A DNA stretch of 64,000 nt from Cyanophora paradoxa CCMP329 (lineage: Eukaryota; Plantae; Glaucophyta): contig QPMI01000474.1 of assembly GCA_004431415.1 (NCBI GenBank), positions 78,913 through 142,912 on the forward strand. Reading direction: 5' to 3'. This document shows, in pieces, positions 29,209 to 60,644 of this stretch (the stretch's first letter is position 1; each line of letters opens with the position of its first letter). The notes under the pieces are model-generated. The model had not been told where the DNA came from, ran no database searches, and saw nothing but the letters and a program-made list of their open reading frames with translations. The translations under genes and the position numbers were made by a program.

Positions 29209-30387
29209 ACACATAGTAAAATGCGGAGTTTTAACCCTCGGCTTATCTTAATTGATTTTGTTGATATATCTCGTATATTCTATTTCAATCAATCGATAAT
29301 CTGTGTATATCTTATCGAATATTCATTTATTTCGATTATTTTGTATTCTTTTCGATATTTTATCGTAAATTTCTCTTATTTTCCGATTAGTCTTACTGAG
29401 TCTATCGATAATCTGTATATATTTCCGAATAATATAACTGAATCTCAATTAGATCTTGCCTCTGGTTAAAACTCCGCATTTTACTATGTGTGATTGGTCT
29501 AAAAGGTAATTGATTTAATCGATATTATATTCATGTACTTTCTCGATTAAATTTAATTAAATTTAATTCATTTAATCGGAAATATATCGCTAAACTCGAT
29601 TAAGATCCATAAAAGATTCATTTGTTAAATAAAACAAATCGATCTCTTATTGAATTCAATCGTAATTATACATGAAATTGATATGTTATTATCATGTTTT
29701 AATGATTCTAAGGGGGGACCCTTAGGATTTTTGAAATAATTGGGTGTGACAGGTGTGACAGGTCTATCCCAAACTTTTGATAGTTCATTTTTATGTTATA
29801 GAAAAGTTTGGGATAGACCTGTCACACCTGTCACACAAACCATATTCAGTAAGGATCTCTTTTAATGTTAAAATTTCAGTGTTAGTTGGTGTAGTTGATT
29901 CACAAAATGCATCCTGTCACACCTGTCACACAAACCATATTCAGTAAGGATCTCTTTTATAATGAAAAACTCAGTAACAATAAGTAAGAAGTTTATCTAT
30001 GTAATTCTACTTGAATAAACAAATGAAATAATCGAGTGTGACAGGTGTGACAGGTCCATCCCAAACTTTTGAGAGTTCATTTTTATGCTATAGAAAAGTT
30101 TGGGATAGACCTGTCACACCTGTCACACAAACCATATTCAGTAAGGACCTCATATATTGGTAAAATCTCAGTGTTAGTTGGTGTAGTTGATTCAAAAAAT
30201 GCATTTATACTCTGATTCATTGTTATTTCCTGTGAAATTTGAGTCAACTCAACCCACTTAGTCAACCCTTGCATTGAATTCGTAACAAAATCCATATACT
30301 TTTACTACTTTTACGATTAATATGAGTCAACCTTGAGTCCACTTAAATATAAATATAATATAATAGGGGGAATCAAGGGGAGATGCT
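29209..30387 (+). repeat. left terminal inverted repeat (~1.15 kb)
   Basis: Reverse complement of 59492-60644. Confidence 0.92.
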
Positions 30388-30680
30388 TATAAACATATGA
30401 GTTATTGAGCCTATGATACTTACATAGTCACGCTGGTCTCGGTAAGAGGATTCCGAATCTGTTTTTATCTTTGTGAGATGATGAGTTGGTGAAGAGATAC
30501 ATGCGTTTTAGTGTTTTGTATCGGATTTCATGTTATGACGTCATAATGACGATGCATATGTATATGATATATATGATATACCACGTGACTCGGGAGATCA
30601 TGACGATCACGGCGATGCAGTCAGTGTGATGTTATGATGCATCATGTAATGACTCATTCAATGACTCATTAAATGACGCA

Positions 30681-30810
30681 ATTTGGTGTATCCCCGTTTT
30701 CATGAGCCATTAAATAACTTATTTTATGATGAAATTTGGTGTATCCCTGTTTTCATGAGCCATTAAATGACTCATTTTATGATGAAATTTGGTGTATCCC
30801 TGTTTTTATG
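30681..30810. repeat. 53-bp tandem repeat (2.5 copies), also present in the duplicate at ~33606-33735
   Basis: ATTTGGTGTATCCC... units start at 30681, 30734 and 30787. Confidence 0.85.
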
Positions 30811-31047
30811 ATTTATTACATCACTAATGATGAGGTATTTATCACAGTCGAAGTTTCGCCGAAGTTTCGGTATTTCGCTGTCGGCATCTTCAAACGCTTG
30901 TATCTCATCACCAGATCATCGAAACGCAACGTTCTGCATAGCGCTGTGAAGCGCTTGATAAGATCTACAAGACTATGTGTATATCATGTGCATATATGTA
31001 TATCAGTCATACATATATTTGGAAAAAACGAGTTTTTGCCTAGCAAA

Positions 31048-32143
31048 CTAGCTAGTTTTGGTCCTTTCTCTTAGTGTTCTCTGAGGTTTAGGGGCTGTAT
31101 ATGACTCCTTAGTAGTCTGAAAGTCATTATACCATCTCTGGCTATTAACCTCAGAAAGTTTCTGTGTCCCTGCTATAGTGAGCTTTTTGAGTTCCCTGTT
31201 AACTTTCCCAGCCTTCTCCTTTCTAGCCTCTATCAAAGGCTTATCTGGACTTCATTAGCAGCTTCTATGCCTTCTCTCCTTATAGCAGCATCAGCCCTGG
31301 CTTCCTCTTTAGCTTGCTCCAAGGCATCCACTGTAGGGGTTTCTAGATATTCAACTGCATTCACAGGCAACAGCTCATGGAAAGCAAACCTGTTTTCTAT
31401 GATCTCACCAGTGGGACTCCTTAGCTTAAACTTAAAGCCTTCCCTACTATCAACAGTGTAAACCATCCTAGACCAATTGTTACCCTGTTTAGCAAAGGGG
31501 TTCTTCTCAACTTTCACTCTAACAAACATGCCAGGCTGCATGGTATCAAGGTAAGCTATTGATTTCTTGAATCTTTCATCTTCTAATCCCACTATATACC
31601 TATAATGCTCCTCTGTAGTTTCGCCTGGCTTCATCTTAGTAGCTGAGTGAACTGTATTATTGTAATTATACTCAATATCACCTAACACATCAAAGAATCT
31701 AGCTGTGTTATTAGCTATGCAATAGTTTGTGATCAGTCTCTTAATCTGCTTGTTAAAGGCTTCAATTCGACCTTGGCTTCTGTGGTCTGCAGTTCCACTC
31801 ACTTGGTGTTCTATGTATTTACTAGATAAATACTCCTGGAATATTCGATTTTGGAACTCACTCCCAGCATCTGATTGAACCTTTACTATGGGTCTTGCTA
31901 CTCTCATCTCAAGCTGTTTAAATGCAGCCAATGTAGTGAGAGCTGATTTATCCCTTATAGGTATGATATACCCAGTTCTCAGTGTAGATTCCATTGCAGT
32001 CATAAAGGTATCATAGCCATTGTTTTGTTTCTTATAAGCTGGGAAAAAGAGCAAATCAATCACATAGGTATCAAGGGGTTGCCTAATTGGGACCATGGGA
32101 TCTCTCTTCCTAGATATAGCAGGTGCATTGATCTGAACAACTT
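31048..32143 (-). pseudogene. 5'-truncated duplicate copy of the rve integrase
   Basis: Near-identical to 33973-35068 and cut at 32143 by the second TIR copy. Confidence 0.88.
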
Positions 32144-32149
32144 AAAACT

Positions 32150-33312
32150 CGGAGTTTTAACCCTCGGCTTATCTTAATTGATTTTGTTGATATATCTCGT
32201 ATATTCTATTTCAATCAATCGATAATCTGTGTATATCTTATCGAATATTCATTTATTTCGATTATTTTGTATTCTTTTCGATATTTTATCGTAAATTTCT
32301 CTTATTTTCCGATTAGTCTTACTGAGTCTATCGATAATCTGTATATATTTCCGAATAATATAACTGAATCTCAATTAGATCTTGCCTCTGGTTAAAACTC
32401 CGCATTTTACTATGTGTGATTGGTCTAAAAGGTAATTGATTTAATCGATATTATATTCATGTACTTTCTCGATTAAATTTAATTAAATTTAATTCATTTA
32501 ATCGGAAATATATCGCTAAACTCGATTAAGATCCATAAAAGATTCATTTGTTAAATAAAACAAATCGATCTCTTATTGAATTCAATCGTAATTATACATG
32601 AAATTGATATGTTATTATCATGTTTTAATGATTCTAAGGGGGGACCCTTAGGATTTTTGAAATAATTGGGTGTGACAGGTGTGACAGGTCTATCCCAAAC
32701 TTTTGATAGTTCATTTTATGTTATAGAAAAGTTTGGGATAGACCTGTCACACCTGTCACACAAACCATATTCAGTAAGGATCTCTTTTAATGTTAAAATT
32801 TCAGTGTTAGTTGGTGTAGTTGATTCACAAAATGCATCCTGTCACACCTGTCACACAAACCATATTCAGTAAGGATCTCTTTTATAATGAAAAACTCAGT
32901 AACAATAAGTAAGAAGTTTATCTATGTAATTCTACTTGAATAAACAAATGAAATAATCGAGTGTGACAGGTGTGACAGGTCCATCCCAAACTTTTGAGAG
33001 TTCATTTTTATGCTATAGAAAAGTTTGGGATAGACCTGTCACACCTGTCACACAAACCATATTCAGTAAGGACCTCATATATTGGTAAAATCTCAGTGTT
33101 AGTTGGTGTAGTTGATTCAAAAAATGCATTTATACTCTGATTCATTGTTATTTCCTGTGAAATTTGAGTCAACTCAACCCACTTAGTCAACCCTTGCATT
33201 GAATTCGTAACAAAATCCATATACTTTTACTACTTTTACGATTAATATGAGTCAACCTTGAGTCCACTTAAATATAAATATAATATAATAGGGGGAATCA
33301 AGGGGAGATGCT
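32150..33312 (+). repeat. second (internal) copy of the left TIR, lacking the first 15 bp
   Basis: Matches 29224-30387 at an offset of ~2925 bp. Confidence 0.9.
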
Positions 33313-33972: not shown

Positions 33973-35356
33973 CTAGCTAGTTTTGGTCCTTTCTCTTAGT
34001 GTTCTCTGAGGTTTAGGGGCTGTATATGACTCCTTAGTAGTCTGAAAGTCATTATACCATCTCTGGCTATTAACCTCAGAAAGTTTCTGTGTCCCTGCTA
34101 TAGTGAGCTTTTTGAGTTCCCTGTTAACTTTCCCAGCCTTCTCCTTTCTAGCCTCTATCAAAGGCTTATCTGGGACTTCATTAGCAGCTTCTATGCCTTC
34201 TCTCCTTATAGCAGCATCAGCCCTGGCTTCCTCTTTAGCTTGCTCCAAGGCATCCACTGTAGGGGTTTCTAGATATTCAACTGCATTCACAGGCAACAGC
34301 TCATGGAAAGCAAACCTGTTTTCTATGATCTCACCAGTGGGACTCCTTAGCTTAAACTTAAAGCCTTCCCTACTATCAACAGTGTAAACCATCCTAGACC
34401 AATTGTTACCCTGTTTAGCAAAGGGTTCTTCTCAACTTTCACTCTAACAAACATGCCAGGCTGCATGGTATCAAGGTAAGCTATTGATTTCTTGAATCTT
34501 TCATCTTCTAATCCCACTATATACCTATAATGCTCCTCTGTAGTTTCGCCTGGCTTCATCTTAGTAGCTGAGTGAACTGTATTATTGTAATTATACTCAA
34601 TATCACCTAACACATCAAAGAATCTAGCTGTGTTATTAGCTATGCAATAGTTTGTGATCAGTCTCTTAATCTGCTTGTTAAAGGCTTCAATTCGACCTTG
34701 GCTTCTGTGGTCTGCAGTTCCACTCACTTGGTGTTCTATGTATTTACTAGATAAATACTCCTGGAATATTCGATTTTGGAACTCACTCCCAGCATCTGAT
34801 TGAACCTTTACTATGGGTCTTGCTACTCTCATCTCAAGCTGTTTAAATGCAGCCAATGTAGTGAGAGCTGATTTATCCCTTATAGGTATGATATACCCAG
34901 TTCTCAGTGTAGATTCCATTGCAGTCATAAAGGTATCATAGCCATTGTTTTGTTTCTTATAAGCTGGGAAAAAGAGCAAATCAATCACATAGGTATCAAG
35001 GGGTTGCCTAATTGGGACCATGGGATCTCTCTTCCTAGATATAGCAGGTGCATTGATCTGAACAACTTCTTGTTTTTTATAGAACTCTTGCAACTGCTTA
35101 TAGGATTCATCAGGTAACTCAGCCCTCATAGCTTGAAGCCCTTTGTAACCAGTTCTCACATCATAGAATCTCTTGGCAATCTTGCTGGTTTCTTTCACTG
35201 CAATAGCAACTGGGATCTCTACTGGGACAAGCTCTTTCATCTCTGACTTTTTTACAATTCGAGATTCTCCCTTTTCCTCCTTGGAACTGTGATAGGCAGT
35301 AGGTTACCTTGTAGTTGCTCAGTGGTTCTCCTAACTATTCTTCCAGTTGCTGGCAT
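33973..35356 (-). CDS. retroviral-like (rve, DDE) integrase of Polinton type, frameshifted
   Basis: YVIDL, VQSDAGSEF and GRIEAFN (D-D-E). YNNTVHSATKMKP. PGMFVRV...NWS SH3/KOW-like tail. Confidence 0.93.
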
Positions 35357-35359
35357 CTC

Positions 35360-38300
35360 TTAATTAAAAGGAACAGAATTAATACCATCTGGTAAGATGT
35401 ATCTCTTTGCATCAAAGCAGTTTAGGGCAACCCTTCTACTCACAGTGTCTATTATTGTGTGATCTGCCCTTCTTTTCTGCTTTGCAGTCACAGTCTTGCT
35501 GATACCTGCAAATAAACACTGTTTTAAATCATTAAATTGGAGTTCCTCAGTTGAAGTCCCAGAGAGCTTACTCCTCTCAATCTCAGCAGTTCTGAAACTG
35601 TAAACTTTAGCTCTCAGACCCACATACTCCAATATAGCAGAGCCAGGCATTTCATTTTTGTATTTACCTGGGGTCATTCTGGAATCACCTCCAAGGTCTA
35701 ATGCATAGGATATATTCTCTATATCTTTTTGTAGGGTCTTAGATTCGATATATAGACAAAAGGAGTCAGTATCATGGAATAGTAACTTTGCTTTTGTCCA
35801 TTGGGACCTTACAGTATCATAGAAGAACTTGTAGTTATGCAGTTTGGCTGCATCCAGAACATAAGCCCCAATAGCAACTGGCTTATCTAGCTTCACATGC
35901 TTTGTGTAAAACTCAAAGGCAACTGCTTTTTCGTTTATGGACTTGTTGATTTCACCAATGGGGAGGCTGCATATTTCATAAACAGTTTCTCACTGTTTGC
36001 AATCTTAACCACAGATCTACCTCTGCAAGATTCAATGCATTTCCCATAGATTGAGTTATTCATGAGTTTATAGAAATCAGCCTCGAATTTATTCACTGCT
36101 TTCCTTCTCATCTCAGTATTCAGCTCAATGTAGGGTTTCATTACAGGAGCCACAGTAAATGATAGGACCCTGTGAACCTTCTTTAGTTTCACCCCTTTGT
36201 CCAACAGATACTGTAGAAGAGGCTCAGAAATCACATAGTTGGTCACAGAACCAAAGGTTGCAGTTAGCTTAGGGGTCTTATCAAGCTCTTCTCCTGAGAG
36301 ATCTAATAGGCTCTTTTGATATTGTGATAATTCTGCATATTCTACTATTTTCTTGTTAATAATTAGGGGGAAATCACTGTGGTCTAGATATAGCCTAATT
36401 GGGTAATCCAGATCAACTTCCAGGAAACTGGATCTGTTATCTTGTGGGTTGAATTCGGTCTCCCATCTAAAATCACCAACTGGGATTGGCTGACTCAAAC
36501 AGTAGCCATACAAGTTGTTAGCATCAAACAGCATTATATGGGAGTTCTCACCATCAGCCTCAGCATACCTACAAGGCATTGTTGCAAAGCCACCCTGATT
36601 CCCCTCTCAACAAATTCGTATTGCTCTACATCACTTATAAGCTCTATTTTTGCCTTGGTGGTCCTAAGCATAGCATCCCAAGATAACCCAGGTGCAGATA
36701 CATAATGAACTGGGTCCAATCCATATACTGAGTGTGAAAGCCTTCTGAAAGCCTGGAATTTGCTCATTAACTCATCTACATCAGCAGCCCCAAAGTCCAT
36801 AAAATTACTTGCATCAATGAACTTGTAAAGACCCCATTGCAATGAAAGGTATTGATCAAAGTTTTTCGAAAGGATTTCGATTCGCTTTTTATCACCCATG
36901 CCTGCTATTTTTCTGAAAATGAATGTCCCACAGTCATCCATTTGGTCAACAACCACTGCTACTTTTGTTTGCTTTGAGATTCTCCTATGGAGATTGCAGT
37001 TTCTGCATGCAGGTGCAATGTAATTACCTGTGTGGTGATCATGATCCCTGCATTTGAAGTTTTCCTTGGTGAACCTCTCACTGCAAAGGTAACAGTGTTT
37101 GGTAGCTCTGTAAATAGCCTTTTGCTCATCTGTGAGTTCATTCATGGAATATTGGTGAACAGGAAATCGATTAGCTCTCTTGCTTTGGACTCCAAGCATT
37201 CAAACAGACCTCCCATTGGATCCTGACCCTCAAATCGAAACTCCTGAACATCTGCCCCAGTGACTATTCTAATGTTGACTGCTGAGACTTCCCTCTTGGA
37301 TTTCGATGCATCAATGGGGATGCTTCTATGTTCAATCTTGCAGTAAACCACAACAGGAAGCCAGACAGTTTTCCTGAGGTTTTTCAGTCCAAACTCTATT
37401 GTGGTGTCAGGCTTAGGGTGATTCCCTTTGAGAGTCTCCAATCAATGCATCTGTTTGAGTCCACATGAGCAGTGAGTTTAGCCTCAGACCTGAATCGAGA
37501 TAAGCATGTATCACAGTAGTGTAACTTTTGATCCTTGGTTTTATCAAGGGCAACTCTGAGAAGTCTTGAAAGGGACATGATAGTAATATAGTGACCATTC
37601 CCTTCATCATCATGAATGAGCATTAGATTAATCTTTTGCTTTCTGCCTGGGTTGCTGGATTGATGTAGGGATATATAACATCTCCATCCATTCCAAATAT
37701 GTTTATGCTGATGCCTGCATTTTGAGATTCGAATTTATCAATGATTTCAGCATCACAAGGAACAGGGAATGGATATTGTCGAAATTGAGAGCCAAAGGAT
37801 TGTATGTGGTTGGTGAGTATTTCCATTTGCGATATTGTGTAAGCTCACTTCTCTTGTGGAATTTACATCTTTCCTATGGATCCATGCCAAAATGGCATTT
37901 TCAAAGCAAGAATCATCAATATTTCGAATATTCACTGTGGCTCTCTTGGCTGCAATTGATTCTGGTGTTTTAACATAGCAGCCACCAGTTGGGCATAACT
38001 CATAATAGCAACTCTTAGCATTTCGATTCTCTCCAATCGATAGCTATCAACAACATTCATCTGTTCCTGACACATTTGGGCTGCTTTATTCAGCTCAGTT
38101 CGAATATTTCTCGATTTGGTTAATACAAAATAATCGCTGTAAATGTATTTCGATATCCAAACCTGTGGATTGCTGACTTTTACGAACTTGCAGATAAACG
38201 ACAAGCGAACTTTGATTGCCCTGAATTGATCCAGACTATCTCTTAAACGTTTGGTAGAGAGGTTGCAATTCTATCTAAATATTCAATCACATCTACCACA

Positions 38301-38593
38301 ACTTCCCTTCTGGCTCTGTATGTGAGCCAGCGATATAATTCATTCATGGCTGTTCCATCTTCTGCCTCTGGTTCTATTTGCCTCAGGCGATCGAGTTCAT
38401 CAAGAGTCTCAACTTTGTCATAGAGGTTATTGGCTTTTCTGGTTAATTTTGCTAAAGTGGGTCTGCCCTTGAAATAAATCCGATTTCCCGGTCATATTCA
38501 GCCTCTGTGATTTCATGGCTGCATACAGTGTTCCCAGTAATCCCATAAGTTCCCATTTCTTCTCTCTAATGAGTCTGTTGCTAATTCGGGCAT
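35360..38593 (-). CDS. protein-primed family B DNA polymerase (Maverick type), frameshifted
   Basis: DANNLYG (motif A), KLMNNSIYGK (B), DTDS (C), LRAKVYS. Endonuclease-VII-like Zn insert CYLC...DHDHHTG...CRNCNL. N-terminal NIRNIDDSCF...GHY region typical of Maverick PolB. Confidence 0.93.
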
Positions 38594-38702
38594 AGTTCCT
38601 AACTTGTTCCTACTAAAAGGGGAGGTTTTAAATGGGGAATTCTGAACACAAAATTTGATGAAAACTACTTAAAGAAATATCTTCTATATATATAAAAGGA
38701 CA

Positions 38703-39396
38703 ATGGCAGAGAAGAAATCGTATTGCCTGGAAAAGCTCAAAGCGGCTTTAATGTTGCTTTGTGGATCTGATAACTTCAATGATTATGTTGCTCTTGGAAG
38801 TAACAGGAAACCGCTCCCTCTTTGGGCAAAGCTTGCAAAATATGGATTAAGTGACTATGACCTGCCTCCAGAGTCTGAGCATTGCGCCTGTGATCATCCA
38901 ATTAAAGAGCAATGCTATATTCTGCATGTTAATAAAAAGATTGTGGTCATTGTTGGGAATTGCTGCATTTTACGATTTATTCCGAAGGGTGCCAGAGGTC
39001 AAGATATATGTGAAAGATGTGGAGATCGCATAAAAACCGAAAGGATAATTTCTGTAATAAGTGCAGAATCGCTTTAAAGCAAGAAGAACTGGAAGAAAAA
39101 GAGAACTTGAAAAACAAGAGGAAGCTCGAAAGAGGCAGCTTGAATTAGAAGAAAGAGAGCGAAGAGAGAGAGAATTAGAACAAGAAAGAGCAAGGAATAA
39201 ACATGCAGTTAATCTTTTCCTGATTTGGTGCAACCAATTTATTCCGAAAATGGATAATCTTCGCAGAGATGATATAGAGAGGTTCAGAGAGGGCAGATCT
39301 GCATTGATTGAAATGTATGCAGAACTCAGTACAACAAATACATTGGTTGCTGGGTTTCAGGTGCCTTATCTTAAAAAAGATATCGCAAAAGATTAG
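38703..39396 (+). CDS. hypothetical Cys-rich Zn-binding plus coiled-coil protein (one frameshift)
   Basis: CACDHPIKEQCYI...VGNCCI and CERC motifs, preceded by a conserved AT-rich motif. Confidence 0.6.
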
Positions 39397-39570
39397 ATTG
39401 CAGATGGAATAAGGACAAGAAAACATGGGAGACCTTGGAAATCGAACCATTTGTAGCATTGCTAGGTAAGCATTTCAAACTTATGTATATTGAGCGATTT
39501 GGACAAAGAGGTTAGAGAACAAAAAATGATTTAAAGAATTCTCTATATATATTAAGAGAGACAGAGGAAA

Positions 39571-39813
39571 ATGCCACTCAGTGAAGCCCAGAAGAGAGCT
39601 ATGAAGAGATACCAGCAAACTGAAAAAGGTAAGGCTCAAATCAAAAAGTTTAACGAAAAAATAGCCACACAGCTTAGAGATCTATATCAAACCGATGATA
39701 CCTATAGAGCAATGAAAATAGCAAGTTCATGTCAGCGAAAGTATGCAGCCAATGCAGTCTGCTTTGTCAAGTATTTGTATGATGTCCCTTACTCAAATAG
39801 AGGAGAAAATTGA
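39571..39813 (+). CDS. small basic hypothetical protein
   Basis: Intact 80-aa ORF MPLSEAQKRAMKRYQQ with the same upstream motif. Confidence 0.65.
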   Translation: MPLSEAQKRAMKRYQQTEKGKAQIKKFNEKIATQLRDLYQTDDTYRAMKIASSCQRKYAANAVCFVKYLYDVPYSNRGEN

Positions 39814-43315: not shown

Positions 43316-43336
43316 GTCTCTAATAAAACAGAGAAA

Positions 43337-44060: not shown

Positions 44061-44111
44061 TGTATCTTTATTAGAATGAGAGATAATTTTATAAACCGCG
44101 TTTATATCGCA

Positions 44112-47190: not shown

Positions 47191-47293
47191 TATATTCTCT
47201 TTTATTATACTGCAACATAAAAAATCTACCAATGATCCTTAATTTATGCGAAGTTTGTAATAACTGGATAGGAAGGGTGAAGCTGCGACATTC

Positions 47294-49200: not shown

Positions 49201-50735
49201 AGGCACCTGTAAAGTCAACTCTCATTGTGGGAGCATTCACATACACAAGGGGATAAATGCGAATATATTTGATTCTGAGAAAACCTATGTAAAAAGCATC
49301 CTTGATGCTGAGAGGAAATCCACTCAATAGAGCCACATCACCTGAGTTGTGAGCATTGTTAATGTTCTCACAGACATATATTTTGTTTGCCCATCTGATC
49401 GAATAAAAGACCAGTTGATCCCATCAGTGGATGTTGCCACATTGAAAGTCTTAATAAAAGCATTGGTGTCCCCTGATCCATAGGCAATCACAGAAGAGAG
49501 TTCAAAAGTATATGGAAAAGCAACTTGAAGGTATTCAGTGGGGGTTTCCCATATCTGTTCAGGAGCATAGGCTCCAGCTTCCCAGCCAAATGCTGAAGGT
49601 CTAGCCATGAAAGGCTCTTTACCTGTCACAGAGGATGAGGCAGTAAAGGCATCATCTGCAAGCTGATACCAATTAGCATCCAAAGGAGGTGATGTAGTGA
49701 GAGTGGATGAAATGTAAGCCTTTGTAGGGTTCTTTAGTTCATAGTTTGCTACTAGAAGGCTGCAAAGCTTATTAATCATATCATTGTTTGCTGCTATGTA
49801 TGTTTCAGTGAAAGCAAGCATATCTGGGATTTTAGAAGTGTCATCCAGGGAGCTTACTATATGATTTGGAAGAGGACTGATAGCCTATAGTATCTCCCAT
49901 AATCCTGATCATAGTTGTAGGGTAACAACTCCTCCATCTTATCAAGGGCAGAAAGCTCACTTGCAGCCATGAGCATGTTAATCAATGGGCTTCCATCTGT
50001 TGAGGCAATCCATGAGAGAATGCCCCAGCTGTTACAGTCTCATAAGCATAACCCACATAATCAGACTCTAAATGTGGGTCCACCTCTCCACAAGAGATAC
50101 TTATTACTATAATATCATCATCATCACTGTAAATCTTCTTTGCATGGCTGTAACCACACACACTGGGATTATTGTTTCCCGAAATGGCACCATCAATGAG
50201 ACAGACAATACTCCCCGATTGAAATCAACAATGCTTACAGGAGAGAAATATGTAGGAGCAGCAGAAGTAGCCCTAGCAGCAATCTTACAAGGCATAAAGT
50301 TGTAATTGTTGTCATTTGTGATAAATATTGGTTTCATATTCTGAGTATCAAAGGATGTAATCACAATGTCCTTTAGGGAATCCTGTATTAGTGATTCACC
50401 AGTAACTGAATTGATTGCAGTCTCCAAGGGTCCCACATCATACTTTGTATTAAAAAGGGCATTTTCGATTATATTTCGAGGATTTGCGAAAATCAAGGGC
50501 AGTTGAGTTAGGTAAATATTGTGTAAATCGTTTGCTGTCAGTTTAGGTTCACCTGGTTTATCAGGATGCCTTATATTCAAACCTATTGCAATGATCCCAC
50601 CAGTGGAAGTTCCACTCACAAGATCCACAAGATCGATTATTCTCCTGCCAGTTCGATTTTCGATTTCTTTAGCAGCCTGGTTATGATAATGCCCCTTGCA
50701 CCCCCCGAAAAGACTTAAACGACCTTGAGAGGCAT
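49190..50735 (-). CDS. patatin-like phospholipase fused to a discoidin (F5/8 type C) domain, frameshifted
   Basis: GGARG, GTSTG, ARATSAAPTYF and IDGA...NNP. The patatin C-terminal helix runs in frame into EYLQV...FIKTFNVATSTDGINW. Confidence 0.82.
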
Positions 50736-50778
50736 CTTTTACTTATCAGGAATTTTATAAATCCATATAGTAAAAGCC

Positions 50779-53700
50779 ATGAGCTTCAATTACCCACCAA
50801 TCTAGAAACCATTCAAGATGATAATGCAAGCAGCACCAAGCATGTGAACTTTGATAATATTAAAGTAAAGGGTTCAGTTTCAATTGACCACAGCTCTGAT
50901 AATTCATCAAAGACTCAATCAAGGGAGCATGCTTTATCTGTGAATCAAACCGATCCAGAAAAGAGGATGTCAGTGTTAGCTTTTAGTTTGGGTAATGTGA
51001 AAGCAAACCAAGTGGCAGAGATCAAAGCAACAAGAAGGAGACCTAGGAAACTAAAAACCAGTGGCACTCACCCAGATATACCTTCCAGGTTCGATAGTGG
51101 TCGATTGATTTTCAATGTTCAAGATGAGCAGGGCAAACAGAACACAGCTTTGCGAATTTACAATGAGGGCAGCACTGCAAAAGCTGAGGTCCCCCAAGTA
51201 TTGCAAGTGGGTCCCATTGCCAATACAAATCAGGTCTCCTACACAAATGATGTATACCCCAAGGATATTACATATGACTTTGCGAGGAATGAGCCTTTTG
51301 GGTTTTTTACTCCAAAAGATGTCCATCAAAAAAAGCCATCAATTACAATCAACAGTAGCCCCAGTCAACCAGTAGCAATCCATTTACATCCTGATTTAGT
51401 CGAAATGGATAGGCACCTTTTGCCTTTGTATAGCAATGTGAAAGACCTTGGAATTCGAACCAGGCAATGGCGAAATATCCATGGCAGCAATGTGTATGCA
51501 AATGGTGAGAAGCTTGTAGTGAGAAAACCTAAGAGAAATCATTGAGCATTATGGTCCCAATGGACCTGTCCCATTCCCTATTCCATTTCCAATGGACCTC
51601 CCGATTTAACACCAAAGAAGCAGCCTGGAAGAGAATACACAGCAACTGAAGATGTAGCCTTTGGGCAGCATATTGTTAGTTGGGAGCAAGTTCGCAATAA
51701 ACCTATAATTGAACCCAGAAAGCAAATAGATGAGCAGTATTTACCTCCTGAAGTCGATATATTAGAGCTTGATGAATATCAATTCGTTCCAGATGAGGAA
51801 GAATATTTACCAGATGGTTTTGACCCACAAGAATATGAATATGATCATTGACCCCAATGAGGAGGAGATACTACCAGATGGCTTAGATCCTCAAGAGTAT
51901 GAGTATGAGCAGAACTATGAACCCCATGAGGAGTATTTAGCAGATGGACATGATCCACCAGCTGTTGATTATGAGCAACCTTATGAACCCCATGAGGAAT
52001 TATTACCAGATGGATTTCGACCTGAGATCTGGGAGTTCTTTCCTGATTATGAACAAATTAATAATAAACCTGCAAAGTATCCCCCAGAGGATCACAATCA
52101 TGATTGGGATGAGATCTTAGGCAAACCTCAAAAGTATCCACCAGAGGATCACAGGCATGATTGGGGTGAAATTGATGGAATACCAGAGTTCCACCAAGCA
52201 AACATGAACACACTTGGGATGAGATCAATGACCAACCAGAATTCGCAAAGGTAGAGCCTCTTGATAACTTGGGGGTTTCTCTTTACCAGACTTGCAATGT
52301 CCCTGAAAGAATCTTTTTGAATGAACACTATGTCATGTGAATGGGACACTTGCAAATTCAGCTATGAGAGGACCACTTCATATTAGGACATTACCAGGCT
52401 CTTTTGAAACCCCACCTGAACCAGGAGCAACCATACCAAATATCTTTGTGTCAAGCTACATGGAGGCTGACATTCCCACAGATACATTCAGAGTCCCAAC
52501 AGACCCAGCAACCTACCAAAATTACAACGCTGCTATACAGGTTCATGTAGCAGATGTAAGCAGTTTAGATGGCTCAAGACCAATGATAGTATTCAGCAGA
52601 GATAAATATTCTTACATTCCCATAGTGGGAACTGCAAATGATAATTATGGAAGGGCAGAGCTTGCATGGATTAAAACAGATTATGGTGGGGTTCTGGAAG
52701 CCAATCAGAATGGCTGCAAAAAACATACACAATGAGAGCATTTCGAGAGTGGTCACAGAGGATTATTAGAAGAGCAAGGATATATTGATGAAGGTGAACT
52801 CACAAATATTCTTTCTCTTTTTGTGATCAAAAATGACACAAACCTTACAGTCACTTCCAATATCTACACCAGTAACCTTTATTACAAGTAACCTATGGGC
52901 AAGTAACATTTGGACAAGAAAACTATGGCAGATGATATTTACACAAGTAATCTTACAGTGTATCGAAATATAACAATCGGAACACAAAACACTATACAAA
53001 TACTTTATAGACCTTACTATGCTGTTACTACTGTCATTGATCCAGCCCCAATTATTCCAAATTGTATATTTGCATGGAAAGCATCAGGTCAACATGGTCA
53101 GTTGATATATTATCAAGGTCAGATATATAACAGAGTTACTACACAGATACCATATTACAAATTATTCGAATTGGGAAACTGTTTATTATTATTTGAATGC
53201 AACCCTGAACAATCAAATTTCGATTGGGAAAGAATTAAACATGGCTTATAGGAATAGTGTTTCAATAGATTGGTCATTAGGTCTTACATTATTCTTTATA
53301 GGTAGGATCAATACAACAAATCCTTCTTATATGTTGAGTATAAGGGATAGTTCTTATCAAAATTGGATTGGATATGGTTGTAAAAATCAAAAGTTTGGTG
53401 TTTCACTACAAATTCAAAACGATATAGAAAATGCAACTCCTCCATTATTCGATGCATCATATATTTATAATTCGTGGAATTATTGGGATTTCACTGTTTC
53501 CTCAGAGCAAATTGTCGTAGGAATGGGTGGATTTGATATTGGAACATCATCGGGTGATTTTCTTCCACCTTCTAATTTTGCATCATTTGGTTCTTCTGTT
53601 GCTAATGGAGATCTTGCCGAAATTATCGTTTTCAATCGTGCGTTATCTATTGAAGAAAAGAACGCGGTTAGATATTATATACAATTATTGTATGGATTTC

Positions 53701-56604
53701 CAAATACGCAGCCCGTATTGAATAATGAAGATCTTAAAATTAATTCGAGCAATATATTTATTGAAAATCTCACAGTTACCAAAAATGCAACTCTACCACA
53801 TCATCCAACATCGAATGTTGTTTTAGATTGGTTAGCAAAACAAAAACACACAAAAGCAGATATTACGGATTTCGCCCATACTCACACAAAAGATCAAATC
53901 ACAGATTTCGCCCATACACACACCAAAGATCAAATCACAGATTTCGCACATACTCACACAAAAGATCAAATAACAGATTTTGCCCATACTCACACAAAAG
54001 ATCAAATAACAGATTTCGCCATACACATTTATGGGAGCATATCACAAATCCACCATTAACCTTCCACCAGATTCACACACTCATGATTATTCAGAGATTA
54101 CAAATAGCAACCACAGGCACCCATGGAGCGAAATGATGACCAGCCAGTGTTTGCACAGTTGAATGCAATCGGAAATGTTTTTAATGGAGTCACACTTTAC
54201 CAATCGAGTAATACACCTGAAAGATTGTATTTGAATGATCATTATGTAGTCTCAATGGGACTTTTACAGGTCAAACAGGCACACCAATGGTGGGAACTCT
54301 TGCAGTAAGATTACCCAGGGATCCAATCGTTAATGGAGTTTATATGGCGATTTTAATGGGAGTTAATGATACTTTCCCCAGTATCTATGTTACGAATTAT
54401 CACCCAGGAGAAACAGGACAAGTAGCGGATTTTTCAGCAGCAATTCAAGTAAATGTAACAGATCAAAGCCATATGATGGAGCAAGACCTAAAATGTTTAC
54501 AAGGGAGAAAGTTGTAAACTATCTTCCTGTTGGGACAACCCACAGATGATCACGGAAATGTGAGATTGCATGGATAAAACGACATCAGGTGGAGCCTTAG
54601 AAGTCAATCAGAGGATGGCAGCAAAAGAACTTACACAATACACCCTTTCAGGAGTAGTGACAGATGATTACCTTAACAATAAAGGATATCTTACAACAGC
54701 AGATTTAAGCAGCTATGTAACAGAAAGTGAATTGGGAACGACTCTAAATAATATACAACAGATGCAGAGTTAACAGCAGCTCTGGAAATTATTTACCTCT
54801 TACAGGTGGGACAGTTAATGGAACTGTAAACGCTACTAGTCTACAAATTGGTGGAAACACAATTCCAAAAGGATATGATTTCGATCAATTAGATGTAGTA
54901 TCAACAGATAGAAGCGCAAATAATTGGAATTTGAATTGGTCACCAAGAACAGGACAAACAGGATGTTATACACCACAAAATGATGAAGATTGTAGCGGTT
55001 GTTTTATGAGGTGGACTGTCCCCACAGGTATGAAATCATTTTATATTCAGCATATGCCTTGGTATAATGGCAGATATTTTGATATCTATGGTCAGACTCT
55101 CAATAACAATCAGCATTTCTTAAAACGTGTAAACGATTATCAAGGAATACAGTCAGTAAATCATGATGGGACAAATAATCTATCTTGTTTGTATCAATTA
55201 ATTGCGAGTTTTACAAGAATATTTATGTTCAAGGTCGAAAAGGTCGCATTCATCTTACGGGGTTTTGGTTGGAGTAGACAGAGAGCAACCGATAATGAGT
55301 TGGGCATGATTCTTGGGATAATATTTACAGTCGTCCCGCTTTAATAACAGCCGCAGACCTTCCACAAACCGCAACATGGGCAACAAATACATGGTTAAAA
55401 TCAACAGATGCAGTTGAGCGAATTTGGTTTGGTAATGGTGATTGCACATATATACGAGGGAGACCAAATGGTGATGGTGTCTCAATTGAATTCAGAACTC
55501 AGCAGATGGAGCAATTTTAAAGTCTTATAACAATGGTAACTTTTGGGTGAAAATACTATTACAGCACCCACTATTAATGCTACTACCAAACTCCAAATAA
55601 ATGGTAATGATGTCCCAAAGTTTCACACAGCGGATTCATCGAAGGAGGTATTGATTTAATAGATGTTCTTATAACGATTGGGAGTGGGCGTGGAGTTCAG
55701 CATGGGATCCATATTATAATTATGGTTCTTTCGTTTATAATAAGCAATATGATGACCAAACTTCTACCGCTTGATTGACTTCGATATACCCGATGGGATA
55801 TCACACAGGAACAGCGTTTTTAACTTATTTACCTTGGAAACGCACGACTTTTTGAAATTTGGGGAGTAATCGACAAGGAAATGAAGTTTTTATTACATCA
55901 GTGAATAGTTATCAACCATACGCCACATCTCCTGACAGTAACCACAGCGGTTTAAATAATGTTCCTATACATCTCGGTAATCGATTTTTGACTATTCGGA
56001 TTAGACCAAAGATTGGAAGAGTTCATATTATGGGTATAAGTTACATGAAAATTTGGACAGGAAATAGTTATGGTGGTCACACCGGCTATATTCATTGGAA
56101 TAATGTTTATAGTAGACCAAATCTTTTAACAGGAACTGTGGTAGTTGGTTTAATTCAAGTGATGGATACAATCGTATCCATTTTGGTAACAATACTTCTA
56201 CATACTTGAAAGGAAGGGAGATATCCTTGATTCCGAAATGAGCAAGATACTGATTTGTTACATGTATCATGGGGCGGATGTGGATAATTATTTAACACAA
56301 GGAAGTGACAGAAGATACAAAACAGATATAAAAAAGATACAGGCGCTCTTTCAGCGATTGAGAAATTAGAAGGAGTGAGTTTTAAACGAATTGGAAGCGA
56401 AAAAGACGGAACAAAATTAGGTTTAATTGCGCAAGATGTGGTAAAGGTAATACCAGAATTGTTAATGTGAAAAAGATGATGGTTACCTTATCGCTTGAAT
56501 ACACAGGATTGGTTCCAGTTCTCATAGAAGCCGTTAAAGAGTTGTCTCAGAAATGCAAGAGTCTACAAGATCAAATAGACCAAATTAAAAATGTAACAGT
56601 ATAA
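50779..56604 (+). CDS. giant fibre/tail-spike-like protein (possibly one ~1,900-aa ORF) with HxH repeats, LamG-like domain and C-terminal peptidase S74 chaperone
   Basis: YPPEDHxHDW repeats. GDLAEIIVFNRALS (LamG-like). HTHTKDQITDFA repeats. SDRRYKTDI...GLIAQDV...LVPVLIEAVKEL. No obvious intergenic gap between fragments. Confidence 0.7.
53845..54030 (+). repeat. 36-bp coding tandem repeat (HTHTKDQITDFA, ~5 copies)
   Basis: Directly visible. Confidence 0.9.
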
Positions 56605-56607
56605 TAA

Positions 56608-56897
56608 ATGGCGACCTATCCACTTGGTGGAACCCCAATACAGGTGAGCCTGTCGCTCTTGCATTTGATACAATCAAGCTTGTATCAGCATTACAAACAG
56701 TGGAAAAAACGATTCAGCAAACTAACAAGCTCTCACCAGTTGTAAATGAGTATAAAAACCTCTTGGTTAATGTCCTTGCTCAAGCTGCATATGGTGACCC
56801 TGTTGCTAAATACAATGAGTGTGATAACAACATTAAAGCAATGACATCCAACCTGCAAGTTCTTTCAACTGTTTACCAATCCCTTGGATCGATTTAA
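56608..56897 (+). CDS. small hypothetical viral protein
   Basis: TATAATAAATG start. The ORF fragment 56700-56897 supplies the C-terminus. Confidence 0.45.
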
Positions 56898-56950
56898 TCA
56901 CTTTGGCTTGATGGTAGTTTATTTTTCTTTCCTTCTTAGTAAAAGAAGCA

Positions 56951-57790
56951 ATGGGGAATATAATCGAGTTCAACTGCCTATATATTCCCTTGGATCCCCT
57001 GCAATGCATTTCGCCAGCATGAAGTAATGATGAGGTTCGTGGTTTAGAATCCACAGAGAGACCCAATTCCAATGGTAACTCCTTTGATAAAAATTCGATT
57101 ATTCGAGTTAAAGAGCTGAGAGCTGATAAGAATTCTGGTGTGGTGAAAACAACTCGACTTCTTGTGACTAATGCTAACTTCTTCCACCTACAATGGAGGT
57201 CCTGATGCTTACAGTGTTGATCTGAAAGCCCTTGTTTCGATAAGAATTCTGCTGCTGTAACTGTGAGATCAGGAGGAGCTTTTATTGGTGGTGGTTGCAG
57301 AGTTTCAGGTCAGCTTTCATCCTCTGTTTCCTACAAGATGTCCCAGATACTCTTGAACAAAATGCTGAGAACCCACAACGAATTCGTTCTATACACCAGT
57401 TGCACAGCAACCTTTTGCATTTCTATGTTTGCATCATCTGTCACTCTTGAAAATTGAATTGGTTTCCATTACAGGAACTGATCGAGTGAGAAGGAATATT
57501 CCTCTTCCACAGCAATGTTCTCTCAATGTGTAGAGCAATAATAACCAACAAGGTCACAATTACTATTCTTTGTTCAAGCATCAACCATTTTGGTCGGGGA
57601 TATTGTGTTTATAACAATCTGACATTTACTTATGATTGTATGTCACTGAGGTTGGAGTTTACAATACTATGATTATGGGACTGAGAACAGATATAGCAGC
57701 TGTTCAGCACTCCGTGGGTAAATGTTGCTGATATATTCACAACAGGATTTTACCAAGAATTAGATGTAATTGATGACCCAACCCCATAAA
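56951..57790 (+). CDS. hypothetical structural protein, paralog A
   Basis: RVKELRADKNSGVVKTTRLLVTNANF shared with the next gene. End uncertain. Confidence 0.5.
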
Positions 57791-57812
57791 AGATATATCC
57801 CTTTAATGTAAA

Positions 57813-58635
57813 ATGGCTGAGCAACCCCATTGAACGAATTATTACACCTCAGCTATCATTAGCTGCCCAGCAAACCATGTTTTACAGCATGCTACCTTTG
57901 ATGATGTAGAGGGTCTCCAATCCACAGAGGTCCAACCTACAATGAACACCTTTGGTTCCACCCACAAACTGAGATTACAGGAACTCAGATGTGATAAAAA
58001 TAATGGAATAGTTAAGACAACTAAGCTACTTGTTACCAATGCAAACTTTTCTGCTCATTATGGAGACCCAGATAGCTATGGAGATCCTCTTTCTACTTAT
58101 TCTTTTGAATCTAGGTCGGGAGCTATTAACTGCAAATCGGGGAGCTTATATTGGTGATGGACTTAGGTTGGTGGGGCTTGGAGCGCCTCTATTTGTGAAT
58201 GATCAACCCAATCCCATTGATCCCAACACAAGAATTCGAACCTATGTCCCCAGCATGAATGCCCCTACATTATAAAGATATTCCCATTGTTGTAAATGAA
58301 CAAACAGCAGTAGTAGACTCTCTTGTTGAGATTGGTGACCACTACAAGGTTGTTGTGGATATTCCACCAGATGTTTATGCTCTTTGTCAAGTAGAGGGTG
58401 GAACTCCTAATTTTGCAGTTGTGATCACCCCATATGATAATTTCGGATTGCTTATCATGGAGTCAATTTCGGTTTGGAAGACTATCAGTTCTTAGTGAGA
58501 GCCACCAAGTTTGGTATCTACAATGTGTATTATATTGCTGAGAGAACCGATTTTATTGCAAAGCAGAATACCTATGCTGAATACTATGGGACAAATCGAT
58601 ATTTCCCCATTTTTGGGCAGGATACTGCTCCATAA
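57813..58635 (+). CDS. hypothetical structural protein, paralog B
   Basis: RLQELRCDKNNGIVKTTKLLVTNANF. Frameshifted. Confidence 0.55.
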
Positions 58636-58657
58636 GAATATTGGTTATATATAGAGT

Positions 58658-58918
58658 ATGGATAGTAAACAAAAAAGTTTATTGATGCTGCTATGACAGT
58701 TCATGGTAAAGATAAATTCGATTACAGTGAGACACTTACATCAAAGCTCAAGAGAAAGTATCTGTGAGATGTTTGCAGTGTAACAAGGTGATCCTTACCT
58801 ATCCCTTTAATCATGTGAAGGGTCAGGTTGCAGGGAATGCAACAAAAAACATTCTCAGGCTTACAGGAAAAGGGCTTCTTCATCAATCACAGTGGAATAT
58901 AGGGATGTTTGCATTAGG
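58658..58918 (+). CDS. single DUF723-like Zn-ribbon protein
   Basis: VHGKDKFDYSE...KVSVRCLQC...NHVKG.GCREC. Confidence 0.6.
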
Positions 58919-58956
58919 TTCGATTAGGTTTAATTAATTTTTCTAAGGTATTCTTA

Positions 58957-59400
58957 ATGGAGACTCAATACAGGGCTTTCATGTTATGCTTGATTACAAG
59001 GCTAAACAGCTATTGCAACAGGACATGACATGTAGCTTCCTAGGTAATTGGATTATGAGAACCCTTGAACAAGCAGTATTAAGGCAAGGTATTAGGATTG
59101 TTCATAACATTGTGAGATATTTGATGGCAAACTATCACCTCCTGGATTTGCATTGGTTCTGCTATTAGATGAAAGCCATTGCACAGCTCATTGTTATTCC
59201 AATGAAGGCATGTTAGCAATTGATATATTCAGTTGTGGAAAGAAGCTCAGCATAAAACACAATCAGTGCAGATGAGATCGAAAAACAATGAATTTCTTCA
59301 CATTTGAGAAGACTGAGAGAATAAACATGATAGATTTCCGTTTTGATGGGTTTCTATAATGATGATCAGGGTGATTCTTTTTTATTACAATAACATTGAT
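58957..59400 (+). CDS. speD: prokaryotic-type pyruvoyl S-adenosylmethionine decarboxylase proenzyme (SpeD/SpeH family), frameshifted
   Basis: The frame from ~59120 reads FDGKLSPPGFALVLLLDESHCTAHCYSNEGMLAIDIFSCGKK, with the ESH autocleavage site and DIFxCG motif. N-terminal HVMLDY. Confidence 0.82.
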
Positions 59401-59491
59401 CAGCTATTAACAAAAGGATTATAATATATCCCTTTCCTACAATAGAATATGTTACAATTTCGAATACTATCGATTTCCTTACATAAAACTC

Positions 59492-60644
59492 AGCATCTCC
59501 CTTCATTCCCCAATTATAATTAAGTGGACTCAAGGTTGACTCATATTAATCGTAAAAGTAGTAAAGTATATGGATTTTGTTACGAATTCAATGGGAGGTT
59601 GACTAAGTGGTTGAGTTGACTCAAATTTCACAGGAAATAACAATGAATCAGAGTATAAATGCATTTTTGAATCAACTACACCAACTAACACTGAGATTTT
59701 AACAATATATGAGGTCCTTACTGAATATGGTTTGTGTGACAGGTGTGACAGGTCTATCCCAAACTTTTCTATAGCATAAAATGAACTCTCAAAAGTTTGG
59801 GATGGACCTGTCACACCTGTCACACTCGATTATTTCATTTGTTTATTCAAGTAGAATACATAGATAACTTCTTACTTTTGTTACTGAGTTTTTCATTATT
59901 AAAGAGATCCTTACTGAATATGGTTTGTGTGCAGGTGTGACAGGATGCATTTTGTGAATCAACTACACCAACTAACACTGAAATTTTAACATTAAAGAGA
60001 TCCTTACTGAATATGTTTGTGTGACAGGTGTGACAGGTCTATCCCAAACTTTTCTATAACATAAAAATGAACTATCAAAAGTTTGGGATAGACCTGTCAC
60101 ACCTGTCACACCCAATTATTTCAAAATTCCTAAGGGTCCCCCCTTAGACTCAACAAAACAATGATAAAATCATATAAGTTTCATGTATAATTACGATTGG
60201 ATTCAATAAGAGTCGATTTGTTTTATTTAACAAATGAATCATTTATGGATCTTAATCGAGTTTAGCGATATATTTCCGATTAAATGAATTAAATTTAATT
60301 AAATTTAATCGAGAAAGTACATGAATATAATATCGATTAAATCAATTAACTTTTAGACCAATCACACATAGTAAAATGCGGAGTTTTAACCAGAGGCAAG
60401 ATCTATGAGATTCAGTTATATTATTCGGAAATATATACAGATTATCGATAGACTCAGTAAGACTAATCGGAAAAGAAGAGAAATTTACGATAAAATATCG
60501 AAAGAATACAAAATAATCGAAATAAATTGAATATTCGATAAGATATACACAGATTATCGATTGATTGAAATAGAATATACGAGATATATCAACAAAATCA
60601 ATTAAGATAAGCCGAGGGTTAAAACTCCGCATTTTACTATGTGT
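59492..60644 (-). repeat. right terminal inverted repeat
   Basis: Reverse complement of 29209-30387, ending ...TTTTACTATGTGT at 60644. Confidence 0.92.

Follow-up and report, generated by a model that had tools for sequence, protein, structure and literature searches.

An integrated Polinton-like virus in Cyanophora

The window analyzed here, a 64,000-nucleotide stretch of the Cyanophora paradoxa CCMP329 genome, contains a real integrated Polinton-like virus (PLV), which is a further copy of an already catalogued family and not a new lineage. Very probably the element is a PLV with 1.15-kb terminal inverted repeats (TIRs) from a many-copy family, predicted to insert by means of an rve integrase, to have its ends copied by a protein-primed polymerase (pPolB), and to be packaged in a double jelly-roll capsid. 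An endogenous PLV with essentially this gene set had been claimed in an earlier note on the same DNA, and that claim is upheld by the evidence presented below.

Ends and extent of the element

29209..30352, + strand: left TIR of about 1.14 kb that contains 180-nt sub-repeats
29217..32142, no strand: copy 1 of a direct duplication of 2.93 kb that takes in the TIR, a spacer and the integrase C-terminal part; probably produced by the assembly
32143..33277, + strand: internal copy of the left TIR, first 8 bases missing
59514..60644, - strand: right TIR, an inverted-repeat match to the left TIR
60645..63300, - strand: right flank, outside the virus; retrotransposon with reverse transcriptase and RNase H (RT_RNaseH E 8.8e-10, RVT_1 E 0.04)

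That the element is bounded by TIRs, as had been proposed, is confirmed by the 97.0% identity of the two repeats (29209-30352 and 59514-60644) over 1146 columns and by the contrast in GC content between the element (0.31-0.43) and its left (0.53-0.84) and right (about 0.50) flanks, where the genes are GC-rich and intron-rich. The left flank contig from short reads (run X1) stops exactly at 29208. The bounding repeats of the span first assigned to the element, 29209..60644, thus stand, but a single unit of that length does not. The 31.4-kb length was dropped because the left end holds a duplication, 29217-32142 against 32143-35068, that is 99.8% identical, comprises a TIR plus half an integrase, and is not bridged by the short-read contigs listed. 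A single unit is probably about 28.5 kb, which, with its 1.15-kb TIRs, lies within the 14-40 kb, TIR-bearing definition of a PLV in the broad sense.

The two copies of the duplication differ by only three gaps and two mismatches, with both mismatches at the join, and no short-read contig among the 24 of 483 pieces listed bridges 32142/32143; instead, contigs of all three short-read runs continue past this point either into uninterrupted integrase or into a complete TIR end. A target-site duplication is the normal trace of rve integrases, and for Polintoviricetes the criterion is 5-8 bp. None of 4-8 bases was found at offsets of -6 to +6 with up to one mismatch allowed, and the left and right flanks do not match each other; the assembled copy is therefore probably a chimera, likely joining the ends of two different insertions. 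It is a less probable, though by no means negligible, alternative that the structure is real as assembled, with a second insertion, nested or in tandem, on its left side and with the target-site duplication lost when two insertions recombined or were joined by a deletion. Ectopic recombination would be plausible given many near-identical copies, and a single-copy junction could have been pruned from the short-read contigs, of which 24 of 483 pieces are listed; however, the listed contigs of every run leave the join unbridged, and the near-identity of the duplicate copies, with mismatches at the join only, likewise speaks against this alternative. The earlier note had missed the duplication, the absent target-site duplication and the mismatch of the flanks, as well as an endonuclease VII domain in the polymerase (see below).

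In the right-flank retrotransposon, a reading frame truncated at the TIR is presumably a tyrosine recombinase, a label given from its motifs, and it had no match in the Pfam scan. EMALEs are associated with tyrosine-recombinase retrotransposons, to which the one in the right flank may be likened.

Replication and integration genes

33973..35356, - strand: integrase of the retroviral rve type, with frameshifts in the assembled sequence (PF00665; D, D and E motifs at 34988, 34802 and 34700)
35360..38556, - strand: protein-primed family B polymerase, pPolB (PF03175, DNA_pol_B_2, E 5.8e-11; polymerase motifs at 36528, 36057 and 35776)
38703..39813, + strand: Cys/His-rich protein and small basic ORF; no informative Pfam or PHROG match
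40047..42264, + strand: likely primase-superfamily 3 (D5-type) helicase, broken by many frameshifts (Walker A at 41495; PHROG 1156)
42870..44100, - strand: small ORFs, two or three in number, without informative matches in Pfam or PHROG
44880..45500, - strand: zinc finger plus endonuclease, homing-endonuclease-like (PHROG 559, E 2.3e-30 and 1e-12; weak DUF559 and DUF4379)
56589..58937, + strand: further ORFs; no informative family match

The Pfam scan covered 70 ORF pieces of the frameshifted window, and PHROG profiles were also run on ORF pieces. The integrase and the polymerase both proved to be as previously described, the former by its D-D-E motifs and a PF00665 match under the curated cut-off (E 7.8e-5), the latter by its PF03175 match and polymerase motifs; the combination of pPolB and rve integrase used as a criterion for Polintoviricetes is thus present. 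An endonuclease VII domain is inserted within pPolB (PF02945 E 3.8e-6). A further region of pPolB, with a Cys motif at 37917 and a His motif at 37602, we take from these motifs to be a likely vOTU protease domain, for which the Pfam scan gave no match. The proposed PrimPol-D5 helicase is partly sustained: the Walker A motif and a weak match to PHROG 1156 DNA primase (E 7.4e-4) point to a primase-helicase, but its Prim-Pol part drew no Pfam or PHROG match on the ORF pieces and stands at motif level. The gene reported as a zinc-ribbon nuclease is recovered as a zinc-finger nuclease by PHROG 559.

Capsid and packaging genes

44089..44826, - strand: likely A32-type packaging ATPase (Walker A near 44751, Walker B at 44545)
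45841..47190, - strand: major capsid protein (MCP), Cyanophora family; full-length match to P0016
47294..48244, - strand: likely minor capsid protein 1 (penton-like end patterns)
48274..49200, + strand: likely minor capsid protein 2 (penton-like end patterns)

The MCP matches P0016, a Cyanophora paradoxa protein by its EukProt label, at 269 of 441 positions (61%) over the full P0016 length, with no in-frame stops and eight frame breaks, and so lies above the minimum (25% identity to cluster members across 30% of the length) for the Cyanophora MCP clusters of Bellas et al. (2023). P0016 agrees in contig name, length and displayed sequence with gene_47449, entered in their Table S2 (PMC10120064) as a confirmed viral MCP with an HHpred value of 98.5% to an iridovirus MCP. 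Closer still is gene_64235 of the same study, identical at 133 of 157 positions (about 85%) in three N-terminal pieces of its displayed sequence, counted by eye. When 1.84 billion representatives were searched with a capsid piece, two of the 10 matches were full-length capsid homologs (P0016 and P0018); among the other eight, the one inspected proved repetitive and of bacterial type, and the remaining seven (524-3695 aa) match over short stretches only. A word-seeded search with the capsid piece returned nothing, a two-sequence profile search its own members only, and sequence searches of PDB and Pfam with P0016 and P0018 were blank. Scans that detect close matches only gave no MCP relatives in IMG/VR (two queries) or JGI metagenomes, and none of pPolB, the integrase or the S-adenosylmethionine decarboxylase (AdoMetDC) in IMG/VR.

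A Foldseek search placed double jelly-roll capsids on top (PBCV-1 Vp54 E 2.4e-10), using a low-confidence model of the relative P0016 rather than of the window's own MCP (mean pLDDT 41, TM-scores 0.2-0.3); an earlier single-sequence fold of P0016 (pLDDT 34) was set aside. ESM features of the MCP scored 0.98 to capsid clusters, with a recognition value under the tool's threshold. The HHpred-confirmed relative, the P0016 model and the ESM features together suggest a double jelly-roll fold, so that the MCP of the earlier note withstands the jelly-roll check proposed for it. The nearest ESM and Foldseek matches are of NCLDV type, and Sputnik and mavirus capsids rank beneath NCLDV capsids with this weak model; the capsid would thus lean toward giant-virus-type capsids, given a poor model and libraries in which PLV capsids may be thinly represented.

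For the remaining packaging genes, the earlier assignments stand at the level of motifs. The putative ATPase has both Walker motifs, but its frameshifted pieces have no Pfam match. The two putative pentons, which we named from their N- and C-terminal patterns, matched no Pfam or PHROG profile, gave a blank Atlas search, and did not resemble each other significantly in a penton-to-penton shuffle test (140/2000). The reported lack of an adenain-type maturation protease is reproduced: a motif scan found no Ulp1/adenain His/Gln/Cys motif in a plausible coding frame, and there was no Pfam or PHROG match, although several unassigned ORFs are fragmented and might hide a divergent protease. Absence of a maturation protease has been described as typical for Aquintoviricetes-type PLVs.

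Predicted entry, fibre and metabolic genes

49190..50780, - strand: patatin phospholipase then discoidin (F5/8) domain, likely one gene (PF01734 E 1.6e-14, PF00754 E 3.7e-7)
50673..54549, + strand: pair of long fibre-like ORFs whose repeats are of phage-tail type (PHROG tail fibre/virion matches, E 2e-6 to 7e-4)
54570..56604, + strand: fibre-like protein with S74 chaperone at its end (PF13884, Peptidase_S74, E 3.2e-10)
58971..59340, + strand: class 1b AdoMetDC homolog (PF02675 E 2e-9; self-cleavage motif at 59165)

Both domains of the proposed patatin-discoidin fusion are present, with a patatin nucleophile motif at 50613, and their linkage into a single gene across frame breaks is probable. 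The S74-chaperoned fibre is likewise supported by its PF13884 match, and the fibre-like ORFs upstream carry a 36-nt tandem repeat at 53847-54024 and a PTR match below cut-off (E 0.016). The AdoMetDC is substantiated by PF02675 (AdoMet_dc) and the self-cleavage motif.

Frame breaks and copy number

The comparison with short-read contigs spans the window up to 47900. All 12 of the indels listed (out of 363) are bases absent from the window, and they coincide with several frame breaks (MCP 47130 and 46713; pPolB 35938 and 36592). Of the eight MCP breaks, seven of which are deletions, only two coincide with an indel in this list. Errors of assembly appear to be the source of the frameshifts. It is highly improbable that the element is a decayed, non-mobile relic with pseudogenized genes. 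Nearly all genes are frameshifted in the window and the TIRs are merely 97% identical; however, a pseudogenized relic was rejected given an MCP alignment free of stops and broken mostly by deletions, catalytic motifs that are intact, and extra bases in the short-read contigs at several breaks.

Contig depth in the element is about tenfold that of the left flank (940-1070 against 92 in run X1, 1190-1360 against 109 in X13, and 2220-2820 against 213-237 in X2), although a sum of contig depths does not equal a number of copies, and repeats may exist in the flank too. The element is one of many copies in a host that the capsid and the GC-rich, intron-rich neighboring genes mark as likely Cyanophora, and the family likely spread recently. 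In run X16, which we guess to be RNA but which may be DNA, 10 contigs lie on the TIR, the integrase and pPolB, and they speak neither for nor against expression.

Relation to catalogued elements

In Table S4 of Bellas et al. (2023; PMC10120064), the Cyanophora paradoxa genome has 366 MCP hits in two clusters, unnamed there and placed in columns under "Iterative HMM searches"; one more copy of a family already counted in hundreds is therefore unsurprising. For glaucophyte elements (n = 156), Table S6 of Bulzu et al. (2025; PMC12220804) gives A32 in 139, rve in 85, PF03175 in 49, D5_N in 40, S74 in 37, lipases in 89, AdoMet_dc in 66 and all nine protease columns at 0, as group totals that do not show co-occurrence of all genes in one element. 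The text of that survey names discoidin-patatin fusions for rhizarian and glaucophyte PLVs and calls S74 fibres ubiquitous among PLVs, and AdoMetDC has 0 occurrences in its main text. The window element thus resembles published endogenous Cyanophora PLVs (PMC10120064; PMC12220804) in its MCP family, with 61% identity to P0016/gene_47449 and about 85% to gene_64235, and shares with the glaucophyte elements (PMC12220804) rve, pPolB, S74, lipase and AdoMetDC, putative genes for a D5 primase-helicase, A32 and a minor capsid protein, and the lack of a protease; no difference was found in the published data consulted, which are group counts and give no map of single elements.

That the element stands for a separate lineage not yet described, with a combination of genes that is new, as the earlier note had suggested, is highly improbable. 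In favor of this reading, the group is unnamed in Table S4, only 2/156 glaucophyte elements match the PLV/polinton MCP profile of Bulzu et al. (2025; PMC12220804) in Table S6, "Cyanophora" and "glauco" have 0 occurrences in the main text of the PLV framework published in 2026 (Bellas and Sommaruga, 10.64898/2026.06.19.733378), and no capsid relatives came from IMG/VR or JGI metagenomes. However, the capsid family, all cargo classes and the zero proteases are already tabulated for Cyanophora and glaucophytes (Bellas 2023 Tables S2/S4; Bulzu 2025 Table S6), and protease absence, S74 fibres and nuclease insertions in pPolB are all known among PLVs and polintons. With a catalogued MCP family and the same cargo, the element groups inside a described clade at the catalogue level, and at that level novelty is largely refuted. 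Within the literature searched, to which most subscription papers did not belong, we found no study that deals specifically with the PLVs of Cyanophora or with AdoMetDC as a PLV gene, nor, in the accessible text, a name, main-text description or phylogenetic placement of the Cyanophora capsid group.

Among other systems, Maverick-Polintons (Polintoviricetes) share pPolB with rve integrase, long TIRs, a phospholipase, the nuclease insert (known from oomycete and nematode pPolB2; PMC10748475) and the likely vOTU domain (PMC11071308). The element differs in lacking a recognizable Ulp1/adenain motif and a target-site duplication (in a probably chimeric copy), in carrying pPolB together with a putative primase-helicase, and in an MCP family of which the polinton MCP profile hits only 2/156 elements. 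Nucleocytoviricota-related PLVs (Zoravirus VC102, VC218 and Zephyrvirus; Bellas and Sommaruga, 2026, 10.64898/2026.06.19.733378) are alike in their 20-30 kb size and in a capsid that may lean toward the NCLDV type; rve integrase is frequent in both Zora and VC218, and no glaucophyte host is named in the accessible text. Mriya48, HUH endonuclease and VLTF2/3 were not recognized in Pfam and PHROG scans of the element's ORF pieces. Mavirus-type virophages and EMALEs are similarly AT-rich, TIR-bounded inserts in GC-rich protist genomes, with rve, pPolB, a helicase and two putative minor capsids. However, the element has no protease and the Cyanophora clusters stand outside the virophage columns in Bellas Table S4. 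Membership in this group was rejected on the missing protease motif, the virophage MCP-VIR profile matching 0/156 glaucophyte elements in Table S6 (PMC12220804), and the low rank of Sputnik and mavirus capsids with the weak model.

A model for the element

In the model proposed, the rve integrase is predicted to insert the element into the host genome and the protein-primed polymerase to copy its ends, with the vOTU-like domain likely freeing the terminal protein. The putative ATPase would fill a double jelly-roll capsid with the genome, and the two putative pentons likely bear the S74-matured fibres, while discoidin-patatin may bind surface sugars and breach the membrane during entry. The putative AdoMetDC could raise spermidine supply in replication; it resembles the Algavirales AdoMetDC of class 1b (Li et al., 2023, PMC9992855) as a small prokaryotic-type enzyme with a self-cleavage motif, but differs in standing alone in a small virus, no spermidine synthase being recognized, and some viral homologs decarboxylate arginine or ornithine instead.

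By sequence, the AdoMetDC appears most similar to those of likely giant viruses: it is about 55% identical to enzymes of giant-virus-like contigs, and the closest relatives with visible context neighbor genes for Erv1/Alr, RNase III, D5 helicase, mRNA triphosphatase and ABC1 kinase. This identity hints at an unknown helper virus, and dependence on a putative giant helper is plausible. A more speculative and rather doubtful extension is that the Cyanophora elements form a host-restricted, giant-virus-related PLV branch that took its AdoMetDC from a phycodnavirus-like giant virus and whose hundreds of copies act as a virophage-like defense. If true, the target of that defense would be an undiscovered glaucophyte giant virus, and a small virus would supply a helper-type polyamine enzyme. 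The giant-virus-like AdoMetDC, an enzyme that is easily assayed, suggests that these elements have been in contact with a glaucophyte giant virus, and the capsid lineage, seemingly never placed in a tree and with no environmental relative in our searches, may provide a test case with a known host for the proposed continuum between PLVs and giant viruses.

Structure of the element

The polinton-like virus (PLV) lies in a low-GC island of the window (29209-60644; GC 0.31-0.43 by composition scan), with GC-rich, intron-rich host sequence to its left and a retrotransposon of ~50% GC to its right. The earlier note took this span as one TIR-bounded unit; its terminal inverted repeats (TIRs), 29209-30352 and 59514-60644, are indeed 97.0% identical over 1146 columns of a self-alignment, but the first 2.93 kb of the element is duplicated head to tail (29217-32143 equals 32143-35068, 99.8%), and the single unit is therefore ~28.5 kb. 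At the duplication join, contigs of three runs lead into either an intact integrase or the intact end of a TIR, and the 24 pieces listed (of 483) include none that bridges it. No target-site duplication was found at the element ends, and the likely recombinase of the right-flank retrotransposon ends at the TIR, the left flank lacking its continuation. The simplest reading is that the assembly collapsed or joined copies; a genuine rearrangement may instead have produced the structure as assembled. Flanking and repeated features are as follows.

27600-29208, + strand: left-flank gene in pieces, resembling by its motifs a laminin-G/concanavalin-type domain gene (no Pfam match on these pieces); a short-read contig stops exactly at 29208, consistent with a fork in the sequence at that point
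60645-63300, - strand: right-flank retrotransposon with RT and RNase H matches; its likely tyrosine recombinase frame, which from its motifs we take to be probably of DIRS/Ngaro type, is cut at the right TIR
42344-42459: internal copy of a TIR sub-repeat (~75% identity, three ACCTGTCAC units) between helicase and structural module, possibly acting as promoter or as a site for protein binding
38661-38699 and 39977-40015: 39-nt repeat (38/39 identical) preceding two + strand genes, a candidate shared promoter

At least half of the sampled window words occur in 10 (the tool's own count) to 14 (rounded shares) listed runs under a single organism label. Over 28000-47900, a short-read comparison of three runs (two presumably DNA, the third of unknown type) gave element-specific contigs ~10x the depth of the left-flank contig; summed contig depth over core genes was far higher, this depth not being equivalent to copy number. 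Nearly all element genes are interrupted by frameshifts in the window. All 12 indels listed (of 363) are bases absent from the window, several at MCP and pPolB frame breaks, and the MCP alignment is free of in-frame stops; consensus errors therefore seem the likely source of the breaks.

Gene content

Profile matches among element genes (Pfam on 70 ORF pieces, PHROGs on 44)
pPolB: Pfam, E 5.8e-11; contains an endonuclease VII domain (3.8e-6)
Patatin: Pfam, E 1.6e-14
F5/8 discoidin: Pfam, E 3.7e-7
S74: Pfam, E 3.2e-10
AdoMetDC: Pfam, E 2e-9
rve: Pfam, E 7.8e-5, under the family cut-off
Zn-finger endonuclease: PHROG, 2.3e-30
Primase: weak PHROG match, 7e-4
Tail-fibre-like repeats: PHROG matches

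The gene set proposed earlier is borne out by profile for pPolB, patatin, discoidin, S74, the Zn-finger endonuclease and AdoMetDC; the ATPase, the Prim-Pol domain and the two pentons are putative assignments from motifs. The pentons we assign through patterns at their termini; two further tests (Atlas search, penton-to-penton shuffle) were blank. The earlier note recognised no adenain-type maturation protease, and a six-frame motif scan likewise detected none of the Ulp1/adenain catalytic signature in any frame plausible as coding. In the polymerase, a Cys motif (37917) and a His motif (37602) stand at the expected place of a vOTU protease domain, a putative label that combines a motif with passages of PMC11071308; Pfam gave no profile support for this domain.

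The glaucophyte row of Table S6 in Bulzu et al. (2025; PMC12220804; n=156 elements) counts A32 in 139, minor capsid in 97, lipases in 89, rve in 85, AdoMet_dc in 66, PF03175 in 49, D5_N in 40, S74 in 37, Prim-Pol in 8 and the polinton MCP profile in 2, with zero for tyrosine recombinase and all nine protease columns; these are group totals, which do not give co-occurrence within single elements. Passages of the same survey describe S74 as ubiquitous among PLVs, a module without protease as typical of Aquintoviricetes, and discoidin in 11 glaucophyte PLVs, alone, paired or patatin-fused, with a proposed role in entry. Nucleases inserted in pPolB are described in PMC10748475, and a passage of PMC8502044 remarks on C. 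paradoxa contigs with adintovirus-like proteins. Because capsid family and cargo are already catalogued in the tables and passages cited (PMC10120064, PMC12220804), the suggestion of a new lineage with an unrecognised gene combination is unsupported; the observation itself is largely confirmed, with its structure corrected.

Capsid and host

A capsid piece had 10 matches among 1.84 billion representatives. P0016 (E 1e-32) and P0018 (2e-9) are homologues over the full length; of the other eight, one is a bacterial-type protein rich in repeats, and seven matched over short stretches. P0016, labelled Cyanophora paradoxa, aligns over its whole length with 45841-47190 (269/441 identities, 8 frame breaks), and P0018 shares 147/368 identities with the window capsid. 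By contig name, length and shown sequence, P0016 matches gene_47449 of Table S2 in Bellas et al. (2023; PMC10120064), listed there as an MCP confirmed by HHpred (98.5%); gene_64235, another entry, matches the window capsid at 133/157 positions counted by eye, and Table S4 holds 366 MCP matches, split 272 to 94 between two unnamed clusters. As P0016 is a C. paradoxa MCP in print, the host is likely Cyanophora. Three further loci lie in the window.

12236-15116, - strand: importin-alpha host gene with short GC-rich introns and IBB and Arm matches, fit to confirm the host lineage
16700-22000, + strand: host gene encoding ANF-receptor and ephrin-receptor-like cysteine repeats
1134-3900: lower GC, long open frames on both strands, no Pfam match; resembles another mobile element

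The structure model of P0016, a relative rather than the window protein, is poor (pLDDT 41, from a 7-row alignment); even so, Foldseek matches it best to double jelly-roll capsids, PBCV-1 Vp54 first (E 2.4e-10, TM ~0.27) with other NCLDV capsids. ESM features stood at 0.98 to viral clusters with 12-18% Capsid_N members, the recognition value being below the tool's threshold. Searches for close matches (IMG/VR, JGI metagenomes, a two-sequence profile) found no environmental relatives of the capsid. The main text of a 2026 PLV framework (Bellas and Sommaruga; 10.64898/2026.06.19.733378) relates rve-bearing, 20-30 kb PLV groups to Nucleocytoviricota, and does not mention Cyanophora or glaucophytes; the window capsid leans weakly toward those groups.

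AdoMetDC and proposed life cycle

Fifteen AdoMetDC homologues were found. The three loci recovered for one cluster have neighbouring genes of giant-virus type (Erv1/Alr, RNase III, D5 helicase, mRNA triphosphatase, ABC1 kinase, thioredoxin), and their enzymes are 55-56% identical to that of the window. In a 27-row tree, the window enzyme and the homologue P0001 (60%) join this giant-virus-type clade at 92/88, but the branches are long and the support falls short of what the tool counts as strong; since the sample was picked by similarity to the query, without taxon labels, the tree does not give transfer direction. A bolder reading, in which the element belongs to a PLV branch related to giant viruses and took its polyamine enzyme from one of them, is rather improbable. 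Passages of Li et al. (2023; PMC9992855) report Algavirales enzymes of this class as true AdoMetDCs, and certain phage homologues as using arginine or ornithine instead. One giant-virus-like contig also carries a family 46 glycoside hydrolase near its AdoMetDC (L003:906-2390, - strand). In the homologues P0006 and P0007, an AdoMetDC relative is fused to deoxyhypusine synthase (PF02675 and PF01916, 434 aa), one protein joining spermidine supply with eIF5A modification.

From the families of the parts observed we infer a life cycle in which rve would integrate the element, the TIR ends would start protein-primed replication with the primase-helicase assisting, and the ATPase would drive packaging into a double jelly-roll shell. 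S74-matured fibres would be anchored on the pentons, the discoidin-patatin protein may aid entry, and AdoMetDC may provide additional spermidine.
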